A stretch of DNA of 64,000 nucleotides from Dudresnaya verticillata (taxonomy: Eukaryota): contig OZ374558.1 of NCBI GenBank assembly GCA_977862235.1, forward strand, positions 2,976,001-3,040,000, written 5' to 3'. Below the pieces are notes generated by a model. That model was not told where the DNA came from. It ran no database searches and saw only the letters and a program-made list of their open reading frames with translations. The position numbers were made by a program, and so were the translations under genes. Shown here in pieces: positions 34,283-62,007 of this stretch. Every line of letters begins with the position of its first letter. Position 1 is the stretch's first letter.

Positions 34283-35729
34283 GCGTGGTCAGCTATGAGG
34301 AGGCTATGTACCTGATCCAGTGGTACCTACAATGACCAGGGATATAGACCGTTTCATTAGATGTAACTGTAGTTGAGGTAAAGCATTGTGTACAGAACGA
34401 TACCTTTGCGCGAAGGTGACGGCGGAAAACAATAACAGTCTTGAGCGTTGCTGCAAAATAGTGTCCCCTCTTATACTGCGGTGAAACGGCTTGTAACAAA
34501 GTGGGGCGCGTGGGAACATCACTTGAACCAACGCGTAAAAGGGGTCCATAAGGGTTTTGTAACAAACGAGACGCGCACTATCGCAGGACAAGACTCGCCA
34601 AAGTCTCATATCTATAGAGCTGCAATGTCACTAAGGGTGGCCATTTTCTCTTACCCCTCGCAGTCGGCCCTGACACCACTCGGCACCAGCGCTGAGTTAT
34701 CGAGGAAACACGTCGATGACTGGCTCGGTGAGATGGTGTTTTGGAAGGAGGTCACTTTTCGGGTGGTTCATCTTTTCGTTTATGTCGCGGCTCCAGCAGT
34801 TTGACAGCCATCCCACTGCTGAGAAAGTCATCGGGCTCACTCGCCTTGCTTCGCTCCTTCCCCGAAGCGTTGCAGAAGCTCCCAACCAGCGCAGGCTACT
34901 GGACAGTACATCCGTAGTGTTCGTCGTCGAGATGTGCCACACACACCAACATGTTATGGCTTTCCTAATAACTCTTTGAACTTTGTTCACGTCGGGACGA
35001 GCCGTGTGAAAATTCAAGTGCCTCTCGGTGGGGCCGTGTAGGGCTGCGTGTAGGGTTGCTCCTCACCGTCCCCCGCACCCTCTTTCTACCTCGGCAAAGC
35101 TCACAATCAGACTGGAACAGGTGTGTTGCTTGCTCCCGTGCAGTCGCTGCGGTAGTTCAGCAGTAAGTGCTGGCGCGCCATTGGAGACAGCCATGCCTCC
35201 ATGCCCGTGTAGTGGGTATGGCAGAACGCTCGGGCTGTGGTGCACTTTGCGACGGTCCCACGGTTTGTGCACAGTGTAATAGCGTGGCACTCACACACAG
35301 TGCAGTTTACGACACTTTGGACATTTTTGCAGTGCTCCTCTGCTCCCGCCTGCAACACGTGCGTAGCTGGTGCCGTAGCAGCGCGGTAAGCCTTTCCGTG
35401 AATGTGCCGACATCTCAGCGCTGCAGGCAGGCACGGGCCGACTGGCGATCTCCGGCTGTTTCGGCCCGCGGCTCGGGAGTGAGTTCCATAGGCCGCAGGT
35501 CTCGCTATTGAATTGTTGGAGATGGAGTAGTGTCTCGTGCAAGTGTCACTGCGCAGAGCTGCGCGGATGCAGTCGTCCGAGTCAGCGGAATCGCGTCTTC
35601 ATTAGCAATATACGTTGCGGATGCGCAATAAAAACACCCTTCCGCTGAGCTGCCACGGGCGGCACGGAACCTTTGCGTCAATTGCCCCACAAAGACGGTC
35701 AAAGCACGTCGCTCGACCGCTCGCCCCGC

Positions 35730-37244
35730 ATGGACGACCCGAGAATTGCATACACGACCTCCCCCTCCTCTCTCCACCGCTCCAGCAACCGCCGACGCCC
35801 CAACCAGATGATATCTCCGTCGGGCGAGCTGTCGTACACCAACGCCCCATCCCCTTGGCGCACCGCCGAGCAGTCCGCCCCGCTCCTCACAACCTTCCTC
35901 CTCGCCGCCCTCGCCACACTCATCTCCTACCAACTAACATCCTTCGTCACCGACATTCTGCTAGGCGCCAAGCCCCGTCGCGAGTCCCCCATTCCATCTC
36001 TTCAAACCCTCCTCCTCGTCCGCCAGGCTTCCCCCATCGCAGTCTTGGCCAACCTACTGCGCCTCGATCCTCTAACACGAGCATACTACAGCCCAGTCCT
36101 GGGCAAGGGCACAACTATTGCGAGAGACCCTACACACATCCGCCCTCAAGTCGCCGCTCGTCTGCTTTTGCTCTTGCTCGCCGCCCCTGCTATCAATGTC
36201 CTCTCCATCATCCTTCCGCTCGAGTCGTCACAAACCCTGTCCTTCTCCGCTGCTGGCACTGGCGGCTTCTCGCTGAGCACCTCCCCGCGGCCGTTCCGCT
36301 CCGCCTCTATTCGTGTCAATGGACACTGCGAGCGGCAGTCCATCGCCTTGTTCCCGGGCGACACCGCTATCGCCGAACTCGACCTATGTGCCCCACCTTC
36401 ATCCTTTGAACGTGTCTGGCTTTCACAGGGATCCGTCAGCGTTATCGTCATCCGTGAATCTGTCATCATGCTCGCTGTTCAGGTCGGTCGCGTTCGCCGT
36501 AATCTTTTCAAGCAGGCCACGCTGAAGACAGGTGAAGACACGTATGTTCTCCGCGTTAATGTCGGGGAGGATACCGTTGCGGGAATAATGGAGGAAGGCA
36601 TGAAACTCATGGCAAGCATTTGCATGCGGAATATCAGCGACGCTAATCGCATCAAAGTTGGTCTCTTTGACCGCTATTTCGAGCATATCGAAACGCGGGG
36701 GATGGAATGTGACGTTGATACTGAGGTTGGGCAGTGGGCAAGTAGATATATTCTAACCCGCCTGTCCAGGTTTGTTACTGTTGTTGATGCAAAAGTGATG
36801 GAGCTGGGGCAGTTTGAGCAATTCGCAGTTGGCGGTGTAGCTGCAGAAGCTGAATGGTTAAACGGCAAGGATTTACCGTTTCTGGCTCGCCGACGACGGA
36901 ATCTAGGCCTGCGATTGATGGCAATTGCAGCGATCTTTGCGGTCTCGCTTCGTATTCTCTCCGCCATCATTTGGAATAACGATATTGACGAGGGCATCGA
37001 TCTCATCATCAAGCAGACGGTCAAATTGGGTTGCTGCGATAGCCTAGTGCGGGACGGAAATGAGAAGATAGTATACAACCACATGCACCAAATTGGAAAC
37101 GTGGCCAGATTCGGGCTGATCGAACAGGGGATGCCTGAAGTCACCCGATTTGAAGGAGCTGAAGTTGGGGCCGACGTATCATGCTTTGATCTTGCTGCAA
37201 GAGATTTGGACGGGATAGAACATTCTTGCAGCGACAGCCTATAG
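35730..37244 (+). CDS. Putative membrane protein of unknown function; paralogue of the next gene
   Basis: Long intact ORF with about three hydrophobic segments and motifs shared with 37331-38731. Confidence 0.85.
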   Translation: MDDPRIAYTTSPSSLHRSSNRRRPNQMISPSGELSYTNAPSPWRTAEQSAPLLTTFLLAALATLISYQLTSFVTDILLGAKPRRESPIPSLQTLLLVRQASPIAVLANLLRLDPLTRAYYSPVLGKGTTIARDPTHIRPQVAARLLLLLLAAPAINVLSIILPLESSQTLSFSAAGTGGFSLSTSPRPFRSASIRVNGHCERQSIALFPGDTAIAELDLCAPPSSFERVWLSQGSVSVIVIRESVIMLAVQVGRVRRNLFKQATLKTGEDTYVLRVNVGEDTVAGIMEEGMKLMASICMRNISDANRIKVGLFDRYFEHIETRGMECDVDTEVGQWASRYILTRLSRFVTVVDAKVMELGQFEQFAVGGVAAEAEWLNGKDLPFLARRRRNLGLRLMAIAAIFAVSLRILSAIIWNNDIDEGIDLIIKQTVKLGCCDSLVRDGNEKIVYNHMHQIGNVARFGLIEQGMPEVTRFEGAEVGADVSCFDLAARDLDGIEHSCSDSL

Positions 37245-37330: not shown

Positions 37331-38731
37331 CTAGTCCCGGTCCGTTGCAATGTGGTTTATCTTTTCCAGATCGAAGCCTTCGGGCTCTGTGATCACATCC
37401 TCATATCTCAAGGTGCCTCTGCTTTGTAACATCGAGTCGCAGCTCTTCATATTCAGGTGGTGTTTCATGATTAACTCGACACCTTTGTGCAGATCATTAT
37501 TCGTCAAAGCTCGTACAATGATCCGCAGGAGTACTGCACCTCCGGCCAAAATAGCCAACGGAATAACATTCAAGAGGCCCCTTCTTCTCCGTAACAATGG
37601 CAGGGATCCGCCAGAAACAATTTTTCTCTTCTTACTACTCAGTTGGAGGAGGTCAATTCTGGGTGATTCAACGAGAGCTATTGGAGCGGTAATGGCCTGA
37701 ATGACTTGGCCAATAAGGGCTTCCTCCATGGCTGGGGCTGTGCAAGTCAAAGGCTTGTAAATCTCCCACTGGGTTGAGGTGGGGTTACCGCCGATGTTGG
37801 TAACCAACAGGTCGGCATCATCAGCCGCTCCTGGACATGAGGTTTCCAGCAGGTTGAGGCCACGAGTTATCAATTCTTTGCCCTGTTCAACGGTGATATT
37901 GGGCTGGACACGGAAGATCTCGCCGTCCGTGAAGATGTCTGAATAGATATCAAAAGAATGGGCAGTGGTGCCGTTGTGAAAGACGCCGGTTACCGCTCTG
38001 ACAGGCTTTTCTTCGGCTGGGACATTGACAGAAAGGTTGAGGCCCGCGTTGACACCTGCACCGATAAAGGGGACTGCTCCTTCCCAGCGCAAACCGTAAC
38101 TACATGTAAAAAAGTCTGCAATCTTGATCTCCTCTGCTCCATAACGTGTCGGGTGCTGGTGGCAGGCTCTGTAAGCGTCCCTGTGGTTGCGGGGGAGGAA
38201 GTTATCGACGCCAAGTACGAGGCCACCAAAGTTTGCGTCGTTGAAGGACAAGGTGGAGTCGCGCTCTAAACTAATAATGACGCCGACGAGATTGATGACC
38301 GGCGCGGCGGCCAGCATGGCAACAAACTTGAGTAGAACTGGGAATTTTATTCTTCCGTCGTTCTCTCTCCTCGGCGTGCGGGTGCAGCGTTTTCGGGTGA
38401 CGCCGTGGTGCTTCCAGTTGGCGACGGTTCGCCTCGGGAACAGAGAAGCAATGACGGAAGGCGGGGAGGCCTCTTCGGAGAGGAGGATGGAGGCGATGTC
38501 CGAGACTTTTGCCTCGCCGACTCGCTTGAGTCCAACAGCGATGTCGTAGACGATGACGGTGAGTTGGTAGGTGAGCAGGGTTGTGAGAACGCCGATGAGA
38601 AAGGCGTTGAGGACGGGACTTTCCGGTTGCCACGAGAGCGAGGACGTGGCGCCTGGGTAGGTCAAGGTTTGATTGTCAATCATGGCGATGTCCCGGACAC
38701 AGGCGGACAGTAGTAACTCGGCTCGGGCCAT
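37331..38731 (-). CDS. Putative membrane protein of unknown function (ORF open to 39049)
   Basis: Shares YQLT..V.DI..G.K, ASP..V.A.L, AAP.IN, LP.L.RRR..L and NND...G..LI.K with the convergent neighbour. Confidence 0.85.
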   Translation of the reverse strand: MARAELLLSACVRDIAMIDNQTLTYPGATSSLSWQPESPVLNAFLIGVLTTLLTYQLTVIVYDIAVGLKRVGEAKVSDIASILLSEEASPPSVIASLFPRRTVANWKHHGVTRKRCTRTPRRENDGRIKFPVLLKFVAMLAAAPVINLVGVIISLERDSTLSFNDANFGGLVLGVDNFLPRNHRDAYRACHQHPTRYGAEEIKIADFFTCSYGLRWEGAVPFIGAGVNAGLNLSVNVPAEEKPVRAVTGVFHNGTTAHSFDIYSDIFTDGEIFRVQPNITVEQGKELITRGLNLLETSCPGAADDADLLVTNIGGNPTSTQWEIYKPLTCTAPAMEEALIGQVIQAITAPIALVESPRIDLLQLSSKKRKIVSGGSLPLLRRRRGLLNVIPLAILAGGAVLLRIIVRALTNNDLHKGVELIMKHHLNMKSCDSMLQSRGTLRYEDVITEPEGFDLEKINHIATDRD

Positions 38732-40029
38732 GCGTCGCGTGGTCAGGCTGGCATTTTGGCGGCTGGGAGGTGGCAAGTCGCGCAAGGGGGGTAGGGGTGA
38801 GGTTGGATGCGTTCGAAGCTCGCGCTCAAGACGAGCGGGGCGGAGCTCGTAGCGGCTCGCCGAAACCAGGACTGGGTAGGCAACTCGAGAGGCAGATAGA
38901 AGTAGACGGAATGGAGTAATGTCGGACGGACTGGACTGTGGACTGTGGACTGTGGTCCGGCGTGGAGTGCTAAGAGGAAAGGATAGGGAAGAGTGGAGAG
39001 TGTAGCAAGAAACTTTTGAAGAAGGTATGTGCTGTTTCTCGGGAGACATACAGTGCTGACCTCACGCTTGATTCAGCCGTAGTGTATGCGCGTGTCTAAT
39101 TGCCGATGGAGAAAAGGCTCGACCAAAACGACGGTGGTACCGTCTGCCTGCGTGCCTGCCTGCTGCTCAATGAGTTGTTCGTGTTGCCGGCAGCCTGGCA
39201 TGAGGACCGGGGGCCTTGATGCGGTATCTCACTGCGGGGCTCCGGCTACGCCACAGTTCCGAACGAAGGGCACTTCGGCCGGGCACGCATTGGAAACACG
39301 CTGGCAGTCAACGTGTAAAGCGCCTCCTCGCACCTCGCAACAATGCGTACAAGGAAAGAAGAATTGGCGCCTGCCGGCTTTGCTGTCCCTCGTCAACAGT
39401 CTCCTCGTTCCCTCAGCCATGATCCTCGATACATCTAACAACGATACAGGCAACAAGCTCTCAAACATTCCCCGATGCCCACAACACCTTTGCCAAAATG
39501 TGCCAACAATCAATATTCAGTGAGTACACTCATATTCCGATTCAATCAAATGTTAGTCAACTTGTACTCACCCAATAGCCGCTGATTACTGGGCACTACT
39601 GTGCAGATCCTGTGCAGATCCTGTCGATCCGCGCTACTTGAAGCGCGATAAGTGTATTACAGTGATCCCTCGATTAGCGGTTACCTTCTTGAAGGAATTC
39701 CTTGATCTAAGAAACTCCAAACGGTCCCCCGCAACGCTACTCTTCAACGGGCCGTGCTATCCACGTTTCCTTTCTTCCTCGATGTAGGGAAGAACCTTGA
39801 TACAAAGCCAAGCCAGAACCCTTAAGTTTAGTTAAAATTTAGGCCATTCTATGTTTATTCAAGAAATTACTGAACGGTAATATAATGTGTATGTAATGGC
39901 ACCTTAAGTCACGGCATTCACATAACCGTTCAGTAACAGCGGTACGATACTTGAGATTGCAAACGAAGAAAACACAGAATCCCAACATAAAAGACATCAT
40001 CAGGGAGACACTTGCGACTCGTCGCACTA

Positions 40030-43949: not shown

Positions 43950-44704
43950 TGTAGAGCGTGCGCCTTGGGTCTAATCCGATACTTGTCCGGTCCCGATCCC
44001 ACCCGGATCCGGGCCAGCAATGCGAACACTCGCAGCCTTATAGGCCCGTATCTTACAGTTCAGGCGATCCGGATAGCCAATCTGGATACCGGATCCGGAT
44101 CCCATCCCATCTGGATCCGTATTACAGTGCCCCGGGGCGCCATGTCGGCCCATCACCGTACAGTGCCCGCGTGGCGCGCGGCGCGCAGCGTGCGCGCGCG
44201 CCCCAGTGAGCCGTCGATGATGTGTTCGTGCGCCACCGGCGGTGGTGAGCGCCGGTGGCGGTTTCTCCGTCGGTCGACGTATTTGTTGTTGCCCGCTTTC
44301 AGCGAAAAAGGGCTCACCTCCCCTTGCACCACACAGACGACTGGCTAAGTAATACTACGTGTAACGGGTAGTGTAAGTTATGTACTGTAAGATAGGCTAG
44401 CGCCGTCGGTACGGACGACGCCGGATCCCTCGACGAGTGTGGGACCGAACCCTATATCAAGGGACACAGTACCCGCGCCACTCCGCTATCATATTCATCA
44501 TATTCTCTTACCAATAAACCTCTGTGTCACCCACATGGTAGCATCGACTAGTCAACGTTTCTCGTTCTAGCCGCTGTTGATTCCTTGGCTGAGCCATCGC
44601 TCGCCTTTGGAACAGCTCACTGCCGTCGGTATTGAGTCACAAGAAGCTGAGGCACCGCTCGCGACTTGTTTACCGGCTTCACCGCACCCTCCCAGCCTCC
44701 CACT

Positions 44705-46700
44705 ATGGCAGAGTCTCACAACTCAGCCGGTCCGATGCTGAACCGCCCTCAAGAAGACCACATCTCCGATGAGCATCGTGCTCAGACCAAGGACATTTGG
44801 CACTTCTTCCGCCGCCCCCAAGACCTCAACGACGACGAACCATGGCCGTGCACAAAAATCTGCCTCGTCACCTCACAGCTCATCCCTGAGCACAACCCGG
44901 ACGCCGGTCCGATTCCAGCTACCCTCGCCGCAGCTTTGGAGTTCGACTTCCGTTCCTACACCAACATCATCGAACACTGTGACCATTTCTCCTTCTACAT
45001 CTCTGCCACAGCAGTCCGCAAGATGAAGCCCTTCTGGTTAAAAACTCTACACCACATCCTCATCAACTTCACCAAGTGTTCTCGCCCCCGCACGCGTAAC
45101 GTGAGCCCGATTGATTGTATCATATCCAACCTAGACGGCTACGACTGTATCGACGACAACGACCAGACTGCCCAACTTCGTCCAGAAGACTCGCCTTCTT
45201 CTACCGACTCTTCTCCCATCACTGCGATCAAGACGCAAGATTACGACCATCGCATGGACCTGAGCAGTGCTATCAAGGTTATCACCTCCATTTTTGACAA
45301 GTCAGATCCCATTACTGGCGATGAAGAAGAACCATTCTTCCACCGCTTGCAGCCGTTTCTGGACTACATGGATGCATCAAAGATACCCGATGAGCACAAG
45401 GTTCCGACACTCTTCTCTGTCTTAACTGTTTGTGCCAAAGACGCTGCGCAACGCATCCGGTCTAACTCGGCCACCATCGATGACTTTGTTGAAGGTCTTT
45501 CCAACATTCTTGTCAAGGAACACAACATCCAACAACGCAAGATGAACCGTTGGAACGCTCTCCAGTATGCTGACTTTCGCAACAAGGTTAGTTCAGAGCA
45601 TGAAGCCACTGGTAATTGTCTTGACTACCTCACGGCTCATTGCAAAGACCCTCCGCTCACATGAACAACAATGCGACCCTTCTCGAACGCATCCGTGCGA
45701 TATTCAAGGATCTCCCGTGGTGTATGACTCTCTATGAGCGCACGACTCCGAACCAAGACCCTCTCTCACTTGGACAACTTCTGAAGACTGCCGCTTCCAA
45801 CCACGATGACCACAACAAACGCAAGAAGCAACCCGGTACTCCCATGTTTCCTGTCAACCCCGACAACGGACATGACCCGATACCCGATCTAGTCGCCACC
45901 TTCTTCGCCAAAACAAGGCCGCTGCCTCAACACCGTCGACCGCAGAGGTACCAGAATCGAGGCTTCCCACGTTGTTACCAGAATCATGGTCATAACGGGC
46001 GATACAACAACTACCGTGGTAACTCACGATACGGTAACTCTTCTCGTTGGAATAGCCGCGTTCCGTCTCAACTTCGTACTCGCCGCTGCTTCGCATGCAA
46101 CATGGAAGGTCACATTGCTCGAAACTGTCCAGAGAGACGCAAGTACGAGAACCGTCTACATAACCTGAAGCAAGTTGGATCTGCAGCTGTTATGCTCATC
46201 GAAGCCATTTAGCAGGACCCTACCGATGATCTGGAAGAGATCGCAACATACCTTGCCAATTTTGAAGCCGACATCAGTGACAGCATGGATACCTCCGACT
46301 TCGACAACTGGATATGCGAACTCCTATACGTCATCGATACCAGTTACGACAACAACCCGTCTCCTTCTCATCACTTCCTCGTACCTATGCTTCCGTGGTC
46401 AAATGATGAGACCATGACTCACAGCGTCATCTCCGTATTCAGGCACATCCTGCTTGATACAGGCGCCCCGAAGAGCATTTGCAGCCTACCATGGCTAGCC
46501 CAGGCGAACTGGCAACCTGTTCCGAATTATGTCAAGCCGTTTCGCTTCGCAGGTACTCGAGTCTCCGCACTACATGCCGCATGCCTAATTGCAAACGTTG
46601 AAGATATTCATGGGCAGCAGCACATCTTCCGGCAAGTCGTACTTGTCCTACCCCCAACCCCGATACCGTTCTTGGTTGGCCTTCAGACATTCCAACAGCA
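44705..46700 (+). pseudogene. gag (CCHC knuckle) and aspartic protease of the GalEa-type element
   Basis: Motifs CFACNMEGHIARNC and LLDTGAPKSIC. There is a frameshift near 45650 and a stop at 46210. Confidence 0.85.
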
Positions 46701-46738
46701 ACTGTTCCCATGCCCCGAGCAACAGCTGAGAACAAGAA

Positions 46739-47656
46739 TTAACTACGTCTACGCTTCCCCAATAATTGTACCTTCAAATCATACACTTCTCCCACATGCA
46801 ATTTCTTGGAAGCATTACCGGCACACATGTTAAAGGTAACCTTGGACAACTTCACGGGTCACTCTTCTTCCGAGTCCCAGATGAGACTTCTTCCTGCATC
46901 GACTACAACGCAATGATCCATCGACGGAGGATCACACAACCTCACAAGCCACACACCCCTGTCTTGGTTAGTTATCCAACTAAACCCATCCTTCCTCATT
47001 TCCTTCTTCACCTTCTTGGATAAGCCCACAATAGTGAGCCCTTCACACAACTGGTGAATCAATGGACCAAGCTGACCCAGCTTGCAAATATGCTGTGGCA
47101 TGTCCTTCAATTTCTCCTGCACCTTGAGACCCATCTCAATCCCGCCGAGACAAGTAACAGCATTCACGACTGAAGCCCGAGCACAGGACATGAGATTGCG
47201 CCGCGCAAATACTCGGTTTGCCTCTCGGTAATGATTCTGAGCCAACGATGCGTTCTTATTACGCGCACCGGGACCGCCAAGCAGAACTGCAAGGCCCTTA
47301 TTGCGTCTGCAGAAGCACAGCAGACAGTCGACAAGATTGTTGTCCCACTCCTGTCCGACATTCCAGTCAAGGTCCTCTTCGGTTAGGACACACTGTCTTG
47401 GATAATTATTCCGCGACCTTTCCAACGCCAGCGATGGGAACTTGAAGCCAACTTCTCCGCGATACGACAGCAAAATCGACTCTGGATCGATGGTGTGGGA
47501 ATTTTCGTGACCACCTGTCATCTTCGCAGAAGCGTACACGCAACCGTCAAGCAAGCGTTTTCCGTTTTCCCCACTGCCCTTGGAGCCATCACCCACAAGG
47601 ATTGCTTCGAACTCCCACGGGACACCAGGCACGCTTTCCACAGTGCCCTGCGCCAT
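46739..47656 (-). CDS. Antisense accessory ORF, papain-fold cysteine-peptidase-like; one in-frame TGA at 46859-46861
   Basis: SCARASVVNAV...DHCVVVD....IWDSEE gives a Cys-His-Asp order. The frame stays open for 39 more codons after the TGA. Confidence 0.55.
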
Positions 47657-49036
47657 CGCTGTCGGTTACTGTAATGCAGATCGCGCGTCCTCCTCAGGGT
47701 TGGTTGTTCCCCCTTACAGAAGCCCAATATCGTCCGAAGAACATAAGGGATACTGACCAGGTTCACGAAGTAGCCTCTGGGCTCCGCCACGCAGCACAAA
47801 AATGGCGCACGCTACCGGGAATTCGGTACAGTAATTTACGCAGTGTACAAGCGCACCGCACAGTAACCCGTAAGAGCAACGGCGCTCCGGCGCACTCCAG
47901 TGCGCAGTTGACACCGTACTCGGGACACGGCTGCACACCAACGGGAACGAGGGACGCAGACGCAGCAACACGGCTCCAGAGTGATGACCAGGCTGCGCTC
48001 GAGCGGTTTAGGCGGGCAGCTATGGTCATATATACAGTATGTGCAAGAACTCACACACTCCTCGGCCACCGTAGGCGAATTTGCCGGTACTGCACGCATT
48101 GGCCTATTTTTCCTAAGTTTGGGAGGGGTGACTGTAACGGGTAGTGTAAGTTATGTACTGTAAGATAGGCTAGCGCCGTCGGTACGGACGACGCCGGATC
48201 CCTCGACGAGTGTGGGACCGAACCCTATATCAAGGGACACAGTACCCGCGCCACTCCGCTATCATAGTCATCATATTCTCTTACCAATAAACCTCTGTGT
48301 CACCCACACTACGTGAGCACGAAAACACGTCAACGCGGGAGACGGTTCGTACTCGAATGATTCGTAACGGCGTCGGTGCCAACGAACGGTCGTCTCACGT
48401 ATCGTGACGGTTACGAAGTGCGCCAGCATGCATACGGAGGTGCACCCGCGTCGTGGGCCGCGGTGCCGTTACGCACAGGAAACAACGGGAAGATCATGAA
48501 GGTTTCAGCGATTTCGTATCGGGTGCGCACTGTAATGCGAATGCCATCGTGGCGCGCGCGATCACGAAGTCCGCTCGGAATTCGTCCGGAGGTGTCAGCG
48601 ATTTCGTATCGCGTGCGTGCTGTAATGCGAATGCCATCGTGGCACGCGCAGAGTATGCGCACTGTAATACGTTTGCCATCGTGGCGTGCGCATTCACGGA
48701 GTCACTTCGAAATTCGTATTTCTCGATTATTTTTCACGTAGACCACGGAGTCGTTTTGCGCATAGCGTCTATACCACAGGTTTACTTGGCTTTGAATGTG
48801 AGGATATGAGTCAGGGGGCTGAAGCTGTTGGCAGAGAGCGCAGTGAATTGGGGATGTAATGAGAGCTCTAGTCAGTGCGCTCAATAGGATGTCAGTTGAC
48901 AACATTTTAAATGCAGATGACAAGGACATTTTTGAAGTAGTGGACGACAGTGAGATGGCTCGCGCCATTGCGTTGGATTTATGTCCCTCTATTGGGCAGG
49001 GTAGTTTTGACAAGGAAGGAACTTGTGGTATACCGA

Positions 49037-50552: not shown

Positions 50553-51109
50553 TGTCACTGTGACAGATGAAAAGGAAATGATTACTTTATTGGAGAAGTA
50601 GTAATCATCAGTAACCATGACTAACCAAGGAAGGCGTAAATGCTAGAACAATTGCAGAGATTGGAGGCGTTAATGCCAAGTAGAATGGTGTAACGAAGGA
50701 AAGAATTTGAAGAGAAAGAGCAGGGCGGGAGGGTGGGAGAACGAAGCAAAGAACTTGCCGAGTAGGGCAGTGAGCTACTGTAGGGTGAGTCTTATATACA
50801 GCTTGGCCGAGTTAAAACTCGGTCATGGGATCGCTGCTTGTGTGAAGAAGCCACCCACAAAATTGCGCGACCTAGCATCATCCAGAAGCTGTGTATCAAA
50901 CCACCCAAAAACTGCTCGACCTAGCATCATCCAGAAGCTGGGGTGCAACTAACAGTCCCGATTTGGAGCTGCAATTCAAACAGCGTACCCAAAAAGGGTG
51001 TGAGTTGTGGGACGCTCGGCCTATGCTCGCTACCCTTGGCATGTCTTTTCAGAAGTGTAAAGCGATTAGGACACCCTCTGTAAACCTCTTCTTTAAAGGC
51101 CCGCAAACA
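50553..51109 (-). mobile_element. LTR-like segment truncating the piggyBac gene
   Basis: On the minus strand: a TG start, a ~50-bp tandem repeat (50850-50941), TATATAA (~50792), AATAAA (~50586) and a GTGACA end. No TSD was found. Confidence 0.45.
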
Positions 51110-52249
51110 GCATCCAGTACAGACATACTTTGACTTCTTCGTACCTTTGCAAATATTGCACCGGGCTTGGTATTTGCATTTTGTCGGACTTCCATCCCTC
51201 TTTAAGCTCATGCGACTAGTGGAAACAAGGTTCATGCCTGTTCCAACATAAACATCAGCACAAAAGTCTTCTTCCTCATCCGATGATTCCTGAGACGGTC
51301 CCCGTTGACGCAACCTTATTTCGTCGTATTTGTTCTCGATGAGACCCTCAGGCAGTTGCGAATGGAATTGATGCGGTGTCATCGCCGACCGGTTTCCTTG
51401 ACAACCCTTGTAGACATTCCATGAATGGACAACACAAATGCCAAAAAGTGTAGTGTTGACGCGTGTTGCCCAATCCTTCACTTCAATTTTCTTCTCAAGA
51501 GCAAGGTCATCCTGTCGGCACCTGTTGTGTATGTCAACCTGAGCACAAGTGTTGTAGTAGGACTGACATACAGTTGGAATGTTGACTTCCAATTGCTCCA
51601 ATCTAGTGGCTCCATTACTGATTCCCCAGCGTTCACGGTAGATTGACGTAGTGTTGACTGATGTCGATGCCGTACTGATAAAGTAGCGTCGATTTCTGTC
51701 AACCAACATTAGTGCCATCATTTCAAGGTTCCCAGAAGATGAGACAAGAGAAACATGATCACCCTCATTTGGCATCTCAACATTGGAAAGGTAATCCATG
51801 GGATACTTTTTGGTATATGTCGTGACAACTCCCGTAAATCGTAGCCCTCTCTCATGGAGTGCTTCGGCTCCCTCCACAGAAGCAAAGAAAGAATCGGCAC
51901 AAACCAATCGGTTTGTGCTAAACCAAGGCTCCACTAGTCGTAACATAACAGCTGTTCCATGTCGTAATTCCCTTTCATGCATCCTCTGGGAACTTTGTTC
52001 TGCATAAACAGTCAGTTCCAGTTGTAACATGATTCCACTTCTCCCGCATGCAGCGGACTTCATCTCACACCCATTCTCCGGCTTCCTGTCCATAGCCACA
52101 TAATGAGGAAGACCCTTATTGATCCAGTCCCCACACAGCCCATACCATCGTGACATACTCTCGTCAACACAGATTGCTTCAGATGGTCGTATGAACGTCT
52201 TTCGATGCTCATTTATGTCATTCACAAAAGCTGCCACGTCACTCCACCG
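51110..52249 (-). pseudogene. piggyBac-type transposase (DDE_Tnp_1_7), 5' part cut by the Gypsy LTR
   Basis: Motifs ICVDESM, RKPENG, VCADSFFASV and YYNTCAQVDIHNRCRQ, with a C-terminal CxxC..CxxC. Confidence 0.88.
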
Positions 52250-52577
52250 TGTAGTATCTCTAGAGCACCACCGCGTACGGCAGCCAAACGAGACCCCAAG
52301 AAGACCAAGAAGACCTGTCGGATTTAACCAGAACTGGCCAGAACGTAGAACGAACCTGCGCGCCGGTAGCAAGCGTGGTAGAGCGGGAGCGCGCAGACGA
52401 AGTCGTGGCCAGAATGTGTGATGAGGACAGAAAATGGCCAAGTCGAGGGTTCAGTTGCTAACTTTACTCCGAACCTCTGGCGGGACGGCTTCGTACCCTT
52501 TTCGGCTTAGCCGTAGTGTGTGGCCAGCTAAGTAGGCCCAAAATCGGCCATCTGAGCTAATCTAGAGCTATTCTACA
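52250..52577 (-). repeat. 3' LTR of Gypsy-1
   Basis: TGTAG...CTACA termini, with copies at 17020-17367 and ending at 43503. It begins exactly where the piggyBac homology breaks. Confidence 0.75.
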
Positions 52578-53251
52578 GTTAGTGGCCGAGGTTACTCCGG
52601 TCGGCCATAATATCTACTTGTGTTCCGGCGTCGGGCCAATGTAAGGCCCTTGCGAGACTAAACCAAGTACTTGTGCGTTAATGGTTGGCTCTGCGAGTTA
52701 GATTTTCCCTTGATTTTTCCACTGTCTTCCCATTGACTCACCGTGCGGCCAAATCCAATTTCGATTTGTGTCTGGCCGCAAAATCAGATCATGCGTGTAC
52801 AGCGGGCCACGTGGTGCGCTTCGGTGTCGTAGGTGGCCACGTGTGAGCCACGTGTACAGTCGGTGGCCACGTTTCATACTTGCGCGCGCTCACCGCCGTC
52901 CGCGCGCCGACGGCACGACTTCATTGGCCAAGTGTCTTCGTTTGGTTGGGCCGATCGTACAGTTGGCCCGTCGAGTTGCTTCCTTGTGGTGGCCCCCTTG
53001 CCGTTGCACCACAGAGCCCCCTTCGCAAGCGTGGACTCCTGGCCGCGAGGGTTTCATCTGGCCATATCAGCGCGCGTGATCCGCGCCGCTACCCCTCTCC
53101 CTGCACCCGGCCATCACCATCTCACTCACACCAAGTTTCCTCTTACCAACACTTGCCAAAACATCGCGCGGACGTTCTCGCTCCTTGCCAACTTGCGCGC
53201 GCCTTCCCTTGCTTCGGTCTCCAACGTGTGCGTCTGGCCAGTTCGCTCTCG

Positions 53252-56200
53252 ATGGCGGGTGGCCCTGCGAAAGCGCGTCCGCGCCGCACCGCATCGGCCA
53301 AGAAGAAGACTGTACGGCCGACCGTTTCTTCTAGTTCATCATCTACACCGCTGTCGAGCGACGAAGAAGTCGCTGTGGCCAAAGTGAAGGCGACCACGAA
53401 GAAGACTGGCCAGAGTTCGAGGCCGCGTGCGATGAAGGCGCCCAGGGCATCTTCCGCCCCAGCACCCAAGACCCCAAGTCGTGCATCTAACGATCCGTTG
53501 GGTGCTGCGAAGGCTACCGCAGTGGAGAAGCCCATCAAGACTGGCCAGAAGAAGAATGTTGCTGCCTCTGCAACTCCGGCCATGGTGCTAACTACGCCCG
53601 ATGTTGGCACCGACGAGTTAATGCAGGAGATCGCGGCCAGTCAGAAGAGACGCGAGGCTGAGGAGCAGCAACTGGCCAGCTTAAAGAAGAAGCTTGTCGA
53701 TGCGCAGAAGGCCAAGGTGGCGCGCAGCGTGACTATCGTCGCATCATCCTCGTCGGAGGAGGTAGCGGCTGCAACAGGCCAACTTGGAAGGGGCAAGCCG
53801 ACTGCATCCTCTGTTGTCGGCCCGCTAGCGAAGGAGACTCCAACAACTGGCCAGAAGGTAGCAGAAGCGCCTGAGGAAGGGTTGGTGCAGGCCGAAGTGA
53901 AGCGCCTCGAGGCGAAGAAGTTGATGCCGGCCGCAAGCACTTCGGTGCCAACGGCCATTAATCCTACTCCACCGCCGTTGGACAGCGCTGTTGAGAAGGC
54001 TGTTTTTGCCATCTCTCGTCCACTGGTTACTCAAGCTACTACTGCGGCAGCCGAAGAAGTAGCTTCGGTTCAGCCCGAGGTTTCCGATTCGGCCATGGTA
54101 TTTGTGCCCGCTCGAGAAGAACCGCTGGCCAGTAAGGAAGAGTTACCTGGAAGAGTTGAGAAGATTGGGTCAGAGCAGAAGAAAGGAGATAAGCCGGAGC
54201 AGAAGGCCCCAGAAGCTTTGGCCAATATTCCCGTGCCACGCAAGTCTTCACGTTCGGCGACACCAAGTGCTTCGAGGAAATCTACGCCGCGACTGCGCTC
54301 GGCTCCTTCGCCTTTCATGCTGACGGCTGCGAGCCGTGCGCGTGAGCTGGCCAAATTAAACATCGGCAAGCCCGCTGTTCAGGGTCCTCCCGCGAAGAAG
54401 CAGCGGCTGCCTCCTAAGGACGTTGGCCAGATATCTCGCGACGAAGTTATTGACGTCGATGCTTCCACACCGATCCCGCTGGCCAACCTCATGTCTGACG
54501 GCGATCGGCGTCGGTTTGTGGCTTTGCTCCCCGACGCCGATGAGCTTAAAACTGGTCATTCTTCGTCTACGCCTCCTGCAGGCATGCCGCCCAAGTCATC
54601 TGGCCAGAGTGAAGATCCTCGCGTGAAGGAATTTATTCCGCGCGAAGAGGCTTTGGATATCACCAAAGCTGGCCAGGATGTCCCAAGTTCAAGTGCTGGC
54701 CCCTCTGCTCCAACTCATCCAGATCGTGAACCAGCTTCGCACACTCGTGCTGCTGTCCCTTTCCGTCCCGACCTCCCACCGGGCCTAGAAGATCAGGATG
54801 GCCCCCAGTTGGTTTTGGACGAACGGTTGCCCGGTACTTCTATCTGGCCAAAGCTTCCTCGAGTGGATATTCTCTATACCGCGTTGGTGCCCGATAGTGA
54901 CAAACTGGACATGATTCGCGTGCGGGAAAGCCATTGCCCTCTCAATGAGGCGTGGCACCAATATCGCGAGTTGCATGAAAATGGCCATCTCTATTGGATC
55001 CCTTCGGAGATTGAGTGCGACCGTGCCTTCTTGCTGTGCGCGCGGGATGTGATGTTCGTCCACGGAGCTTGGTTGATGTTCAAGGGCAAGTCTAGTGTGT
55101 ACCCTCATACTTCCACATGGTATTACGCCTTCCCTCACTCGTGGATGCTTGAGCGCTGGGAGCAGACGACCGTGCGAAACGCAAAAATGGCCAGTACAGA
55201 TCTTCGTCGCATCATAGCGGCGGGAGATTGGTTGGCCCATCGCACAGGTGGTAGCTATGTCTACCATGGCAACACTCGCGGCCAGGAAGGGTTTTGGCCC
55301 CCTGTCGAGTACTTCCCTAGCGTTCCCGCTTTTCTTTGGAAGGAGTGGCCATCGAGAGGAGAAGCTTGTCTACTTAGCCCCCTGGCTTATTATTTTGTTG
55401 GCCAGTATCGTCGTCATGCGCTCGACCCCACTTGGGTTGAGTGCTTCCAGGAAACCTCTGTCGTGGAGTTACACGTAATGGTCAGTATCTTCTTCTGCTA
55501 CGAAGTGCAAGCGTCGAAGAGGATGTGGTGGATGTCTTCTCAGACCATTGCTCGACGAATTGAAGTGGTGAAAGGCATTATTTATCTCCCCGCCAGCCAG
55601 GAGCACCAGCATCAGTTCAACCATGTGTATTGGCCAGATATTGTATCGTTGTACGAGAAACTGGCCGATACAGTGCTTCACCGCGACCATTTGTTCCAAC
55701 GTCGAGCGGGCCATGATGAGAAGTATTGCGGCTTCGACTGGAACAAGCAAGTGACTTTTCGGCACGGTAGTAGCTTTGGAGTTGAGGTGGCCAATGACGC
55801 TTCCATCGTGCGGGCCAGCATCTTGCATCCTCATCCGCATGTGGTGGCCGAACTTTCTGTACGTGGCCATGTTAACCAAATGTCTTTGGCTAACGTCTTG
55901 CGGCAGCTGAACCAAAGCCTTGGCCGTCTTAGCGACACGAAGCGTGGCCAGACCGATGAACTCAACCGCCTTCGTCACCATGTTGATGAAGTGGAAGGAG
56001 TTATCAGGCGGGGCGAAGAGCGGCTGGTCAATGTTAGGAGTCAGAAGGATCAGATTGAGGCCGAGTTGCGAGCTGCAAAGGAGTCACTGGCCAGGTCCAA
56101 CGAGCAATGTCTCGAGTGGAAGAGGCAGCGCGACCGTTGGTGCGACGAAACCCATAACCAACAGGCCTTACTCGACTTGGAGCGTAACCGTGGATTTCAT

Positions 56201-56650
56201 CAGCTGGCCAGTTTGCGTGCAGTTTATGCACCGTCTGTCTTTGGCCAGGTGCCTCAGTTTCCGCTGTCTTCCCTGCCAACGCCTGCGCCGGCTCCAACCA
56301 TGCCGCAATATCCTGGGGTCTCAGTGGCACCGGCCACAACCCCCACGCTGTCTTACGCTGGTGATGTCTCTGGTCATCCGCGCGCGCCGTCTCGACCGGC
56401 TGATTATCAGCCAGAGCCAACTCGTCCGGTGGTGTCGGCTCTACCTACTCCTGTGGCCAATGTTGCTCAAACTGGCCATGTTCCCGGCCGTTTGGCTCTG
56501 CCGATCACTTCGCCCTTCGTGACGCCGCCAACTGTTCCCGCGACGGCCCCACGTGCGCCTGCGACAGCGCCTCAGGCGCCTTCACAGGCAAGGAGCAGAG
56601 AGCCCTATGCTTCGGGTTATCCTCGCTCGCCAAGTCCTTATGGCCGTTAG
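53252..56650 (+). CDS. Accessory protein of unknown function (1132 aa), antisense to gag-pol
   Basis: Uninterrupted ORF with a basic low-complexity N-terminus, a Trp/His/Tyr-rich core, a coiled coil and a Pro-rich tail. The second copy shows synonymous changes. Confidence 0.88.
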   Translation: MAGGPAKARPRRTASAKKKTVRPTVSSSSSSTPLSSDEEVAVAKVKATTKKTGQSSRPRAMKAPRASSAPAPKTPSRASNDPLGAAKATAVEKPIKTGQKKNVAASATPAMVLTTPDVGTDELMQEIAASQKRREAEEQQLASLKKKLVDAQKAKVARSVTIVASSSSEEVAAATGQLGRGKPTASSVVGPLAKETPTTGQKVAEAPEEGLVQAEVKRLEAKKLMPAASTSVPTAINPTPPPLDSAVEKAVFAISRPLVTQATTAAAEEVASVQPEVSDSAMVFVPAREEPLASKEELPGRVEKIGSEQKKGDKPEQKAPEALANIPVPRKSSRSATPSASRKSTPRLRSAPSPFMLTAASRARELAKLNIGKPAVQGPPAKKQRLPPKDVGQISRDEVIDVDASTPIPLANLMSDGDRRRFVALLPDADELKTGHSSSTPPAGMPPKSSGQSEDPRVKEFIPREEALDITKAGQDVPSSSAGPSAPTHPDREPASHTRAAVPFRPDLPPGLEDQDGPQLVLDERLPGTSIWPKLPRVDILYTALVPDSDKLDMIRVRESHCPLNEAWHQYRELHENGHLYWIPSEIECDRAFLLCARDVMFVHGAWLMFKGKSSVYPHTSTWYYAFPHSWMLERWEQTTVRNAKMASTDLRRIIAAGDWLAHRTGGSYVYHGNTRGQEGFWPPVEYFPSVPAFLWKEWPSRGEACLLSPLAYYFVGQYRRHALDPTWVECFQETSVVELHVMVSIFFCYEVQASKRMWWMSSQTIARRIEVVKGIIYLPASQEHQHQFNHVYWPDIVSLYEKLADTVLHRDHLFQRRAGHDEKYCGFDWNKQVTFRHGSSFGVEVANDASIVRASILHPHPHVVAELSVRGHVNQMSLANVLRQLNQSLGRLSDTKRGQTDELNRLRHHVDEVEGVIRRGEERLVNVRSQKDQIEAELRAAKESLARSNEQCLEWKRQRDRWCDETHNQQALLDLERNRGFHQLASLRAVYAPSVFGQVPQFPLSSLPTPAPAPTMPQYPGVSVAPATTPTLSYAGDVSGHPRAPSRPADYQPEPTRPVVSALPTPVANVAQTGHVPGRLALPITSPFVTPPTVPATAPRAPATAPQAPSQARSREPYASGYPRSPSPYGR

Positions 56651-57570: not shown

Positions 57571-60500
57571 TCACGAACTGTTTTGGCCCGGCGTAGCTCG
57601 GCGCTTCATGCGCGCGAAGAAGCGGGACACCAACGTGGCCGGCAGAAGAGCCTCGGGTTCCCAGGTTCGGCCATTATACCCATACCACTTGACCTGAAAC
57701 CACCGCTGGCCAGTTGAATCCTCGCGCATATCCGTGAGCTTGTCAATGACATATTCCTCGGCCGACGCAGCGACTCCTTCTGGAAGGGTTCCCAATGCGG
57801 CGCTGACTATTGTCTCCGTAGCCATCGGTTGCCCTTGTGGCCTGGGCGCGGCTACTACTCGGTCCGAGCTAACACGCTCTAGTTGGCCAGCTCCGTCTAT
57901 GACGAACGTACGGCCATCATTGCTTATAATTTTGTATGGCCCCTGGGCATGATGCTCTAGTTTCTTTGGCTGCTTTTCGGGGTTGTCCAGGAAGACAAAT
58001 CCCCCAGCGGCCAGCATATTATTCCCCGTTCTAACCGAGCGGTCAAAGTCCTTCTTGTAGCGCGCTTGTGTGCGAGTTAAACTGGCCGAAGCTTTATCCA
58101 CGGCCTCTGATAATCGGCGTAAGAACGCTTCTTTGACAGTCCCTGTTGGCTTTGGCCGGTTTAACGTAGCTTCAAGTGAGAATTGACTCGGCGGCCGACT
58201 GAGAACCAAGTCAAACGGCGTGGTTCCAGTTGAGCGATTTATATGGCAATTATAAGCATACGTCAATGCCGCAGCGTACTCATCCCAGTCAGTCTGATGT
58301 TCATTCACGTAGCTCCTCAGCATTGCGGCCAATGTTCGATTGTACCTTTCCACTTGGCCATTTGTTTGTGGATGATATGTTGTTGTGAAGATGTTGGCCA
58401 CCTGTAATTGTCGGCAGACTGCCTGGAAGAACTTGGCCGCAAACTGCCCTCCGTTATCGGTAAGAACTGTCTTTAGTGCGCCGTACTTGAAAATCTAGTG
58501 AACGCAAAACCCCGTGGCCACATTATAGGCGGTTATCTTCGTCAAAGGCACCACCTGAGTCAGCTTCGAGAAGCGACATTTCATGACTAATATGTGCTAG
58601 AACCCCTTCTTAGTTCTGGGGAGTGGCCCGAGGAGGTCCATGGCCACACTCTCTAATGGTTTACTGGCCGGGAACAGCTGTAACTTCGATGTATGTCGGA
58701 GACGACGAATCCGGTTTTTGGCGCAATGGCCACAGTTCCGAACTGTTGCTAGGCAATCAGCGGCCATGTGGGGCCAATAGTATGTCCGTCGAAGAGTCTG
58801 ATACATTCGATTCTGGCCAGGGTGACCTGCCAGAACGGTATGGTGACACAACCGAAGAATGCGGCCATGTAACAAGGCTGGAAGCACTATTTGTTTCTGG
58901 CCATCTGTCGGACAACGCCTGTAGAGGACCCCATCGACTCCTTCGAAGAAGAGAGGTTTCTTGGGTCGTCCCAGGCCAGTTCGCGTGGCGAGAATGGTCT
59001 GGCAGAAGTCATCGCTTTTCTGGCCTTCTATTATTTCAGTCTGTGTTACTGGTGTTGGGAGGATCTCTGCTGTCTTCCCTTCCATTTGTGCACGACTGAA
59101 GACTTCCGCCCGGCCATAGTCCGTATAATCGGCCATCAAATGTTCCTCTTCCCATGCGTCGACTCCATCGTCTCTTTCTCTCCTGTCGGCCATATTAATT
59201 TCTCGATTTCTCCGGGCCCGCGTGGTCGTGAGAATAGAGGGGGTACCGTCCAATACAGGTACATTATCATCTATTGGCCGTGCATCTCCGCTCTCTTGCG
59301 AGGCCACCAAGCGGGACAAGGCATCGGGTACTTGGTTCTTACGCCCCGTTTTATACTCAATCACAAAGTCGAACTCGGCCAGACGTAGTCTCCATCTTGT
59401 AAGACGGCGAGACGAATCAGTGAGCGACATCAACCAACGGAGGGCATCATGGTCCGTACGAACTGTGAACTTTGTACCTTCAACATATGGCCGTAATGAT
59501 GTAATTTGCCCACACCACAGACAAACACTCGCGCTCCGTGGCCGAATAGTTTTTCTCGGCCGACGTCAGGGAACGAGACCAATATCCCACGGGATGGTAC
59601 GACTCGTCCTCTTGTTCTTGGAGCAGAACGCATCCAATCTGATATGCGCTGGCATCGGTCTCAATCACATATGGCCGACCGTATCTAGGTAAGGCCAGAA
59701 TCGGCGGCGAGACGAGAGCGGCCTTCAGTTTCTCGAAGCTATGACATTGTTCCTCCGTTGGCCGTTCGAAGTCTGGCTCGGCATCCTTGCACAACATGCG
59801 CGTAAGTGGCCGTGCGATGGTGGAGAATTTGGCCACAAACCTTCGGTAGACATTGCAAGCGCCCAAGAAGGACCGGAGTTCCGTAAGAGATCCTGGAAAC
59901 TCGGCCTCTTGTATTGCCTTGGTACCCTGCATGGCCATACTTAGTTTTCCGGGGGTCACTACATGGCCCAGATAATCTACTTTGGCCTGAAAGAAGGAAC
60001 ACTTCTTCAACTTCAACGTAATGCCGGCCGCCTTCAACAAGGTTAGGACCTCGTCTAGATGGCCAAGATGATCCTCCACACTTTTGGAGAACACGATGAC
60101 ATCGTCCAGATAGATGAGGCAGATCTGCCATCGGACGCCAGAGAGAACTATGTCAAGCGCGCGCTGAAATGTGGCCGGTGCGTTCTTCAAGCCAAACGGC
60201 ATTCGATTGTACCTGAATGTCCCCAAGTGAGAGGTGAAAGCCGTCTTATCCTTGTCCTCCTCGGCCACTGGTATTTGCCAATATCCGGAGTTGCAGTCCA
60301 AGGTTGAAAACTCGGCCGCATCCCCAAGGGAGTCTATACAATCTTCCATGCGCGGGAGCGGGTATGCGTCACCAACTGTCTTCGCATTGAGTCGGCGGTA
60401 ATCGACGCAGAAACGATGCCTTCCTTTTTCGGTACCATCACAATTGGCGAGGCCCATTCTCCTTGCGATGGCTCTATCACTCCGGCCTCAAACTGCTTCC

Positions 60501-62000
60501 TAATGTCGGCCTCTGCGATCGCGCGTAACGTTGGTCCCTGTCGGCAGGGCATCGCTATTATTGGCCGGGTTCCATCTTCCAAGTCTATCCGATGTTCGGT
60601 GGCCATGATCTGTCCCAGGGAACCGTCCCACATTGCAATGTGTTTCTCTAGAATGGCCATTATCTTTTCGCGTTGTTTCTTGTCCGGAATATGATCAATC
60701 TTGATCTTATCCCGCCATTCTTGTGCCTCTTGTCTGGGTACCTTTGGTTCTGAAGGCTCACCTGTTTCTTGGCCAGATTCTTCTACTTCTACTTGACTAC
60801 TATCCTGACCCACAGGTGGAGTAAGCCCAAGTACACTGGCCATATTCTCCACACTCCGTCGGTGTGGCGTCAGGATTTCCATGGGGTGGCGGACAGCATA
60901 GCCGACCACGGTACCATTTGGCAGTAAGACATCCTTTCTTCCCCAGTTGGCCAGCATTACCTGGAATGGTTTCTGCGGCCGAACTTCGGCAACTCCATTG
61001 GCCATCCGCGTATGGTGCCGAAAGCTCAAAGAATGTTTGGGCTCCAACACACATAATCCTCGGCCATCGCTGCGAACAGACACGGTGGCCTGTTGGCCTG
61101 CCTGTATGGTTAGACCTTTCGTCAATCGTACAGTGGCCGCGTAGTGTCGCGGGGTCTTGCGTTCCGTACTGGCCGAATTGGAATTACCCGGAGGCCGGGC
61201 CCCCTTCGCAGCGGTTGGCTCTGGCCCCAGAGCCATCGAAGTGCTGTCGGGTAACAAAGGAAGGACGTCACCGCGCACTAAGTGCACGGTCTGTGCACGG
61301 CACTGGATGCTATCCACGTGCGTGTTCAGAAATTTCGTACCCAACAAAACGGGTACGGCAAAGCGAAGGTCAGCGATAAGGAACGGCACTCGATATGAGT
61401 GACGGCCTAAGCGTACGACCAAGGAAACGGCCCCTCGAAAATGAATCGGCCGTTGGTTGGCGTCCCCCAGAAGGGGTGGGGACGTCAACGCAAGTGCGTT
61501 GTCCTTCCAGTTGGGAGGCAACGCATCCAACCGGATGATGTTTCAACCCGAGCACGTGTCTAAGACAATTGGCCCGGGTAACAAGGCGGACATCGTGAGT
61601 CCAAATGAACCCGAAAGGGTATAGTTGGCCCCACCCAGGATGCAGACCATACCTTGTGATGAAACACTGGCCAGTTGGGATTCCTCTTGCTGTTCGTCGT
61701 TCGATGATTTGCGGCCACTCTTTGGCAACGAACCCCCGTTTGTGGTGGGGGTGGATGATGATGTAGTATGGCCAGATCTCCAGGGCGGTGACCACACCAG
61801 AGCGTTAGATGAAAATGGGCAGTGGTAGGTCAAATCATGGGTTGACCAAACCTGGATTGGCGTTGCCAAACGCCATGCAATGGCTAACAAAGAATATAAA
61901 TGGAGATGACTAAAAGGAAATAACTTAACTGAAACGAGACTATCCGGTTTTGGGACGTGTACGGGCAACGGGATCACGACCGAAGATCTCGGCCCGGCTA
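57571..62000 (-). pseudogene. Gypsy pol (PR, RT, RNase H, integrase, chromodomain) with several frameshifts and stops
   Basis: Motifs VLDTCSG, MPFGLKNAPATFQ, YLDD, ETDASAYQIG, HHCC zinc finger, YHPQTNGQVERYN, GPY and EEYVIDKL..VKWYGY..TWEP. Confidence 0.95.
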
Positions 62001-62007
62001 GTTTCCC
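61962..62007 (-). promoter_or_regulatory. Putative -1 ribosomal frameshift signal (gag-pol)
   Basis: G GGA AAC lies immediately before the gag TAG. The -1 frame is open into the protease and a GC-rich stem follows. Confidence 0.7.

Follow-up and report, generated by a model that had tools for sequence, protein, structure and literature searches.

A recently inserted, internally deleted Copia-type retrotransposon with an antisense gene predicted to encode a papain-fold Cys-His-Asp enzyme

We analysed a 64,000-nucleotide stretch of the genome of Dudresnaya verticillata (assembly GCA_977862235.1, contig OZ374558.1, positions 2,976,001 to 3,040,000 of the forward strand; hereafter the window, in whose coordinates positions are given), in which a 3949-bp long terminal repeat (LTR) retrotransposon carries an additional open reading frame (ORF) on the minus strand. 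The element is bounded by two LTRs of 176 nt on the plus strand, a 5' LTR at 44360-44535 with TG...CA termini and a 3' LTR at 48133-48308, which are identical at 175 of 176 positions, the sole mismatch being T at 44494 versus G at 48267. The target-site duplication CTACG flanks the element on the left (44355-44359) and, as an identical 5-mer, on the right (48309-48313). A primer-binding site (PBS; TGGTAGCATCGAC, 44536-44548, plus strand) abuts the 5' LTR, and a polypurine tract (PPT; GGGAGGGG, 48121-48128, plus strand) ends 4 nt ahead of the 3' LTR. Following PMC3587641, we take the PBS to match initiator tRNA-Met; a tRNA scan found no tRNA gene in the window against which it could be checked. 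With direct TG..CA LTRs, a 5-bp duplication and a PBS and PPT adjoining the LTRs, the element shows the hallmarks of an LTR retrotransposon, and it is a recently inserted, internally deleted copy of the Copia type. A previous reading made from the letters alone (the sequence-only reading) had described LTRs differing at a single position and an intact duplication, PBS and PPT, and all of these features were confirmed. No further copy of the element or of its LTR was found within the window.

On the plus strand, gag and protease are spread over three open stretches (44651-45664, 45625-46212 and 46213-46833). From the start of gag through the protease (44714-46683) the element is collinear with residues 2-682 of P0006, a Copia polyprotein of 1729 amino acids. 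The first part of gag (44705-45655, ATG at 44705) aligned with P0006 residues 2-346 at 36% identity (E-value 2e-66) and is broken by a frameshift at 45656-45657, behind which homology resumes in another frame, the second part of gag (45658-46209) aligning with P0006 from residue 349. This second part contains a CCHC zinc knuckle (about 46084-46134, PF00098, E 6.1e-5) and is followed by an in-frame TAG (46210-46212) between nucleocapsid and protease, at a point across which P0006 is open. The aspartic protease region (46213-46683, with the DTG at 46456-46464) aligned with P0006 up to residue 682, and no Pfam protease model matched it. The gag-protease is full in extent and broken twice, by the frameshift and by the TAG, in agreement with the sequence-only reading, which had called it disabled.

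A search for longer relatives returned 13 polyproteins of 738-1887 amino acids, of which 11 were 33-40% identical to the gag-protease of the element and two, which were partial matches, 48% and 52% identical; RVT_2, the Copia-type reverse transcriptase (RT), was carried by 10 of the 13. None of these polyproteins aligned with the element beyond 46707 at E<=1e-5, so integrase (IN), RT and RNase H (RH) are absent from this copy, as had also been claimed for IN and RT. In P0006 the zinc knuckle lies at 476-492 and RVT_2 at 1225-1451, with about 540 residues between protease and RVT_2, and relative to this protein the deletion amounts to about 1035 codons (~3 kb). Having neither IN nor RT, the copy does not itself display the RVT_2 with integrase ahead of RT that marks Copia elements; its assignment to the Copia superfamily follows from the homology of its gag-protease to the 13 polyproteins, 10 of them with RVT_2. 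Judged by this homology, the copy is a derivative of a divergent Copia-superfamily element and not a complete member itself. It is dead in all its genes.

Behind the protease, a lax search gave small matches that all fell on one spot and all came from the extreme ends of polyproteins. When read in the third frame, 46689-46742 on the plus strand encodes IPTATVPMPRATAENKN (IPTATVPMP...stop), closed by a TAA at 46740-46742, and resembles the extreme C-terminus of related Copia polyproteins. The IPT..VPM motif lies inside the last 13 residues of P0006, P0008, P0009 and P0012, at 1647-1660 of 1701 in P0010 and also at the end of pol in L001, a related element described below; at the C-terminal ends of the other 8 of the 13 polyproteins, several of which are fragments, it was not seen. 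A single internal deletion, with its out-of-frame junction at 46684-46688, thus removed IN, RT and RNase H and fused the protease to the last ~17 codons of pol. Pol and the minus-strand ORF converge tail to tail: their stops (46740-46742 and 46739-46741, respectively) overlap by 2 nt within a TTAA, and 23 nt lie between the last conserved pol residue and the pol stop and end of the antisense gene. Because the tail and stop of pol are retained between the protease and the extra gene, which occupies the interval from the pol stop to the PPT, this gene does not stand in place of IN and RT; on this point the sequence-only reading was wrong. The loss of IN, RT and RNase H is an internal deletion separate from the presence of the extra gene. 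A cargo insertion of the piggyBac type at TTAA was also considered and rejected, since the other end has no second TTAA and there are no terminal repeats.

The antisense ORF comprises 305 codons on the minus strand (46739-47656, ATG at 47654-47656, TAA at 46739-46741) and contains the motifs SCARASVVNAV, DHCVVVD and IWDS. It is interrupted by an in-frame TGA (46859-46861, minus strand), 39 codons ahead of its natural end, and the C-terminal end behind this codon reads GKRRRS. We consider the TGA a break in a conserved frame because relatives span this point in a single alignment piece, 62 of 62 other aligned proteins have a sense residue in its column in the 65-row alignment introduced below (A2), and columns C-terminal to it are conserved in the same alignment (P270 in 50/63, L273 in 55/62, C281 in 52/61 and G283 in 57/61). 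The motifs and the natural-looking continuation past the TGA had already been picked out in the sequence-only reading, and both stand. Translation of this TGA as a sense codon is unlikely, given that the standard code leaves frames in the window without a stop for as many as 1267 codons. Upstream of the ORF lies a spacer (47657-48120), presumed to be a promoter region, with a guanine-cytosine content of 0.567 over 47657-48132. Searches of 47657-48132 gave no remnant of pol at E<=10 beyond chance-level rows, and the spacer showed no similarity to the N-terminal extensions found in some relatives of the antisense ORF.

A word-based search found three homologues of the antisense ORF, 30-52% identical to it, and a full HMMER (phmmer) scan of 1.84 billion representatives found 156 relatives at E<=1e-3, 57 at <=1e-10 and 9 at <=1e-30, counted as representative clusters. 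From the 156-plus matches we chose 64 of the longer ones and aligned them with the antisense ORF (alignment A2, 65 rows); in addition, 152 family proteins including fragments were aligned with hmmalign, where aligned residues alone were counted. Three residues proved to be nearly invariant: Cys161 (63/65 in A2 and 127/130 by hmmalign), His251 (60/64 and 112/117) and Asp264 (64/64 and 103/107). Among the 94 proteins that hmmalign aligned at all three sites, 85 have the full Cys-His-Asp triad. Furthermore, Arg135 (64/65) and Gly124 (62/65) are conserved in A2, and all five residues are kept by the element's own copy. The sequence profiles of Pfam, NCBIfam, PHROGs and PDB gave no informative match to the family, and no Pfam peptidase family (C39, Josephin, OTU or Ulp1) matched the antisense ORF or any of the 65 members of A2. 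Weak rows for mL43 and Tudor profiles (E 0.009-2) were judged to be chance. A protein atlas gave weak leads, the best being unnamed clusters at 0.92, with an IpaJ protease at 0.90.

An AlphaFold model built from the 65 sequences reached a predicted local distance difference test score (pLDDT) of 90.3 and a predicted template modelling score (pTM) of 0.82; an earlier model from four sequences (pLDDT 37) was unusable. In the model, Cys161 opens a helix (161-174), His251 lies in a strand (249-256) and Asp264 stands right after a strand (261-263). Judged by topology, this is the predicted layout of a papain fold with the three residues in their canonical places, which supports the helix-Cys, strand-His, strand-Asp order of the sequence-only reading. 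That reading had named as a refutation a structure that fails to gather the three residues; the topology speaks for their gathering, and the question is answered by topology and not by distances. The TGA costs the model one helix and the last strand.

A fold search by a method other than Foldseek aligned 48,161 chains, of which 11 scored Z>=8; 14 of the entries listed had Z from 9.5 down to 8.0. The C39 domain of PCAT1 came out with Z 9.5 (root-mean-square deviation (rmsd) 3.5 Å over 130 aligned residues), AvrPphB with Z 9.3 (3.9 Å, 144 residues), the C39 domain of ComA with Z 8.9 (3.4 Å, 124 residues), a tegument-like deubiquitinase (DUB) with Z 8.8 (3.4 Å, 140 residues) and Josephin-2 with Z 7.5 (4.4 Å, 126 residues). 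Among the 50 matches listed, nearly all were cysteine peptidases, DUBs or papain-like toxins, and the titles that we could not place were YopQ, 'CD lyase' and CtaG. Consistent with this list, the first rows of a Foldseek search against PDB were Josephin-2 (E 9.1e-3), the PCAT1 C39 domain and AvrPphB, and the resemblance to C39 and Josephin peptidases suggested earlier was thus recovered among the best structural matches. In BFVD, the model matched one unnamed protein at 6.8e-4 and a phage C39-domain protein at 8.4e-3, and the rows included a 'papain fold toxin 1, glutamine deamidase'. Fold matches cover residues 131-303 of the model. The protein has a further conserved domain at its N-terminus (17-130, ~115 residues), which contains a nearly invariant GGPGAR loop and falls outside all of these rows. 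Altogether the family of the antisense ORF is predicted, from the model, to consist of papain-fold thiol peptidases.

The one related element that could be compared at the DNA level, L001, is a eukaryotic Copia element on a 7118-bp contig, whose gag-protease is 38% identical to that of the element studied here. Its PBS (TGGTAGCACCG, at 491) has the same placement, and its pol is broken into several frames and ends at 6582. The contig is filed under a metagenome bin of Chlamydiota, that is, of bacteria, and is presumably mis-binned. The genome containing L001 gave no match to the cargo gene. As L001 does not have the gene, the gene is not general to this Copia lineage and, on comparison of the two elements, would have been acquired in a sublineage or solely in the element studied here. 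Most members of the family come from contigs no longer than 1.3-4.4 kb; P0002, P0026 and P0037 are encoded on contigs of 6.6, 14.9 and 20 kb, respectively. None of the members has a retroelement Pfam domain on the same protein.

Taken together, we lean, with slightly better than even confidence, towards the following reading: the element is a deleted Copia copy, and its antisense gene, which likely serves the lineage as an accessory, belongs to a family predicted to be thiol peptidases of the papain fold with a Cys-His-Asp triad. Several observations weigh against it. The closest homologue, P0001, has Gln replacing the His; P0034, P0046 and P0075 have Tyr at the His site, and P0038 and P0056 are without the Cys. 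Gln is the usual oxyanion-hole residue of papain-like enzymes, and in A2 none of the 11 columns ahead of the Cys (150-160) holds a conserved Gln, a role that another residue or a backbone amide may have taken. With Foldseek there was no PDB match at E<=1e-3, the best being 9.1e-3, and the highest Z, 9.5, is just above the 7-8 typical of models without a clear match; because such values are common for unmatched models, the support for the fold weighs on the uniformity of the list and on the conserved triad, not on Z. With regard to the position of the gene, the plus frame behind the pol motif spans just 9 codons before its stop, and the overlap of the two stops in TTAA may be chance. L001 has ~250 nt between its pol stop and a PPT-like run and no gene there, and neither tblastn nor an unfiltered profile search gave a trace of the antisense gene in it. 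Scans of metagenome, genome and viral contigs for loci encoding relatives found nothing, and the gene-bearing element was examined in a single copy, itself broken.

Four of the relatives with a substituted triad form a subgroup by length as well: P0034, P0046, P0075 and P0056 are 431-439 amino acids long, with an N-terminal extension of ~135-150 residues, and have Tyr for His or Arg for Cys. From their sequences, these proteins may be inactive derivatives of the enzyme.

If the favoured reading is right, namely that the gene is an accessory of this Copia lineage, the protein would be an active thiol peptidase or isopeptidase in its intact relatives. The gene would be transcribed on its own from a promoter in the 476-bp spacer (47657-48132, minus strand), by analogy with gene23 of Grande, and the enzyme would act on a protein of the host or of the element. 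A substrate of the Gly-Gly type, such as the tail of a ubiquitin-like modifier, is possible and is suggested by the C39, DUB and UfSP enzymes that head the structural list; the deubiquitinase- or deSUMOylase-like function proposed in the sequence-only reading is a candidate activity. Lacking enzymes of its own, the copy would have been copied by the proteins of a partner, unless the deletion postdates the insertion, and the mobilisation in trans proposed in the sequence-only reading is plausible. From the one LTR mismatch we calculated ~10 internal substitutions since insertion, with a range from <1 to >50. A pair of stop codons, a frameshift and the loss of ~3 kb are more than this figure would predict, so at least some of these lesions probably predate the insertion, and the copy was probably moved by the proteins of a partner.

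The gene could instead have been captured once, a cellular gene with its upstream region having been taken up between pol and PPT and persisting as a decaying passenger without a role. The related element without the gene, the single copy in the 64-kb window and the ORF broken by a TGA are what such an event would leave, and the relatives, mostly on contigs of 1.3-4.4 kb and without retroelement Pfam domains on the same protein, fit it as well; in PMC7264820, transduction-like cases are described as occurring in one or few copies. However, the coding sequence is complete, has its own ATG and ends 23 nt short of the final conserved residue of pol with neither ORF cut, its place and orientation match those of the family-wide antisense ORFs described in PMC7264820, and the triad substitutions in 9 of 94 relatives form a pattern also expected of genes of mobile elements. 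A one-off capture is thus possible, though not what we would expect. The order of events could also be reversed: an autonomous element would have inserted without ever being moved in trans and would have lost IN, RT and RNase H later, and the gene, too, may have arrived only after insertion. The window gives no sign of which came first, and the dating by LTRs hangs on one mismatch, with its ~10 internal substitutions and range of <1 to >50; yet a large deletion, a frameshift and two nonsense codons exceed expectation, with ~0.4 new stops estimated, and we regard this course as distinctly improbable.

With respect to the enzyme, a papain-like fold might serve an activity other than hydrolysis of ubiquitin-like proteins, for example as a deamidase, an acyl- or acetyltransferase, a transglutaminase-like enzyme or a general protease. 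The fold matches include papain-like toxins, SpvD, a phytochelatin-synthase-like protein and the 'CD lyase', in addition to the glutamine deamidase row of BFVD, and the missing conserved oxyanion Gln and the lack of a match to any peptidase-family sequence profile point the same way. In contrast, the rows of highest Z are peptidases that cut after Gly-Gly or act on ubiquitin-like proteins, namely C39 domains, tegument-like DUBs, Josephins and UfSP; such a different activity seems to us rather unlikely. A more far-reaching version, that the whole family of 156 clusters is an antisense accessory two-domain isopeptidase of retrotransposons, which removes ubiquitin-like marks from proteins of the host or of the element and thereby protects retrotransposition, we consider improbable. 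For the element at hand, a Copia copy with an antisense accessory gene for a papain-fold thiol peptidase is still the explanation we prefer.

The GalEa clade, in which the sequence-only reading had placed the element, is defined by trees of RT and RNase H, and this copy has no RT. For GalEa1 and CoRex1-2, a PBS of TGGTAGCAGAGC and LTR termini of TGTTA...TATCA have been given as descriptive and not defining features (PMC3587641). The PBS of the element, TGGTAGCATCGAC, agrees with the GalEa/CoRex PBS (PMC3587641) in its first 8 nt out of 12, its LTR termini (TGTAA...CCACA) differ from the GalEa-like TGTTA...TATCA, and the related polyproteins of 1458-1887 amino acids are longer than CoRex1, with 4949 bp for the whole element, has room to encode. 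PBS, LTR termini and polyprotein length thus speak against the label, and membership in GalEa is doubtful.

The window looks like a transposon-rich region, and searches over its 64 kb turned up neither a cellular gene nor a tRNA nor any Rfam family. A second broken Copia element lies at 5907-14046 on the minus strand, with RVT_2 at 5907-6527, an integrase core at 6835-7545, a Pol beta-barrel domain at 12889-13353 and a copia-type gag at 13552-14046; it has no DNA similarity to the studied element, and the 13 polyproteins had no match to it at E<=1e-5. A Gypsy-type element on the minus strand (57574-63998) runs off the end of the window and contains RVT_1 and RNase H (59483-60487), RNase H and an integrase zinc-binding domain (58600-59565) and Retrotrans_gag (61998-63998). 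Among DNA transposons, a piggyBac-type transposase ORF of 507 amino acids (50927-52450, minus strand; DDE_Tnp_1_7, E 1.9e-24) lies beside an open frame of 1267 codons (52847-56650, plus strand), which matched no Pfam family and no PDB sequence at E<=0.01. Other mobile remnants are a Harbinger-type DDE_Tnp_4 (23822-24262, plus strand), a DDE_1 (26072-26881, minus strand) and a fragment of RVT_1 (8809-9609, plus strand), and further long frames without a Pfam match occur at 37331-39061 (576 amino acids) and 35649-37244 (531 amino acids). Beyond the right end of the studied element, after some 190 nt, a 60-nt unit is present in three copies (48500-48691), the second and third of which are 92% and 67% identical to the first.

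Both halves of the arrangement belong to known kinds, since antisense extra ORFs of LTR elements and peptidases of mobile elements have each been described; the present case is a variant of these and brings with it an uncatalogued protein family. Antisense ORFs located behind pol and ahead of the 3' LTR (aORF-3R) are known from Grande of maize (gene23), RIRE2 of rice, Retand of Silene, PvRetro13 of Phaseolus and the fungal Boty, and PMC7264820 places them in plant and fungal Ty3/gypsy elements, reports none with clear similarity to other proteins, and takes presence in all or most copies of an element family as a criterion. For gene23 of Grande, transcription of the minus strand from its own upstream region has been shown (PMC7264820). 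The gene described here lies on the opposite strand between the pol stop (46740-46742) and the PPT (48121), and like the aORF-3R cases so described it combines an antisense position between the pol stop and the PPT or 3' LTR with its own start codon and a spacer able to hold a promoter. Unlike them, it sits in a Copia-like element, and its protein is modelled with confidence as papain-like and conserves Cys, His and Asp. In literature searches that covered listings, abstracts and the passages cited here, with most subscription journals outside this coverage, no description of a Copia-type element with an antisense gene of the papain fold came to light. The gene would be the first antisense extra gene of LTR elements with a recognisable enzyme fold. 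Antisense ORFs behind pol have been known for decades, without a recognisable relative or function according to PMC7264820, and a papain-like family gives them a biochemical hypothesis that can be tested.

Extra enzyme genes downstream of pol are also found in LTR retrotransposons of bdelloid rotifers, whose captured ORF3s encode a GDSL esterase and a DEDDy exonuclease (PMC5408684). The element studied here is similar in having an extra enzyme gene downstream of pol and differs in the kind of enzyme and in its antisense orientation, which the abstract of PMC5408684 does not mention for ORF3.

Peptidase domains in DNA transposons offer a third comparison. PMC2836005 describes OTU and Ulp1 domains in Ginger1 transposases, Ulp1 in Mutator, OTU in Helitrons and a C19 domain fused to a transposase in Trichomonas, which were proposed to take part in transposition or to deal with the response of the host; the statement in the sequence-only reading that some transposons carry OTU or Ulp1 proteases is in line with this. 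As in those cases, a mobile element would here carry a thiol peptidase of the ubiquitin/SUMO-hydrolase kind, in our case by prediction. In the cases so described, however, the domains belong to known Pfam families and are mostly fused to the transposase, whereas here a separate antisense gene of a retrotransposon has no Pfam match. The catalytic order of Ulp1 is His-Asp-Cys, and the order here is Cys-His-Asp. If further genomes confirm the link between the family and Copia elements, thiol peptidases or isopeptidases would be carried by retrotransposons as they are by DNA transposons and many viruses; even without that link, the family is a candidate for a new entry among peptidase families. 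Should the isopeptidase reading of the whole family be true, this would be the first antisense ORF of an LTR element with an assignable enzymatic mechanism, and a retroelement counterpart of the OTU and Ulp1 domains of DNA transposons and of viral DUBs.

In its predicted catalytic part the protein is most like C39 peptidases (PCAT1, ComA), the C58 peptidase AvrPphB and Josephin, with which it shares the order Cys-His-Asp and which are its best structural matches over model residues ~140-303. Cys161, His251 and Asp264 align within a few residues of what we take to be the catalytic residues of ComA and AvrPphB. In contrast to C39, C58 and Josephin peptidases, the family is matched by no sequence profile and has an extra N-terminal domain (17-130).

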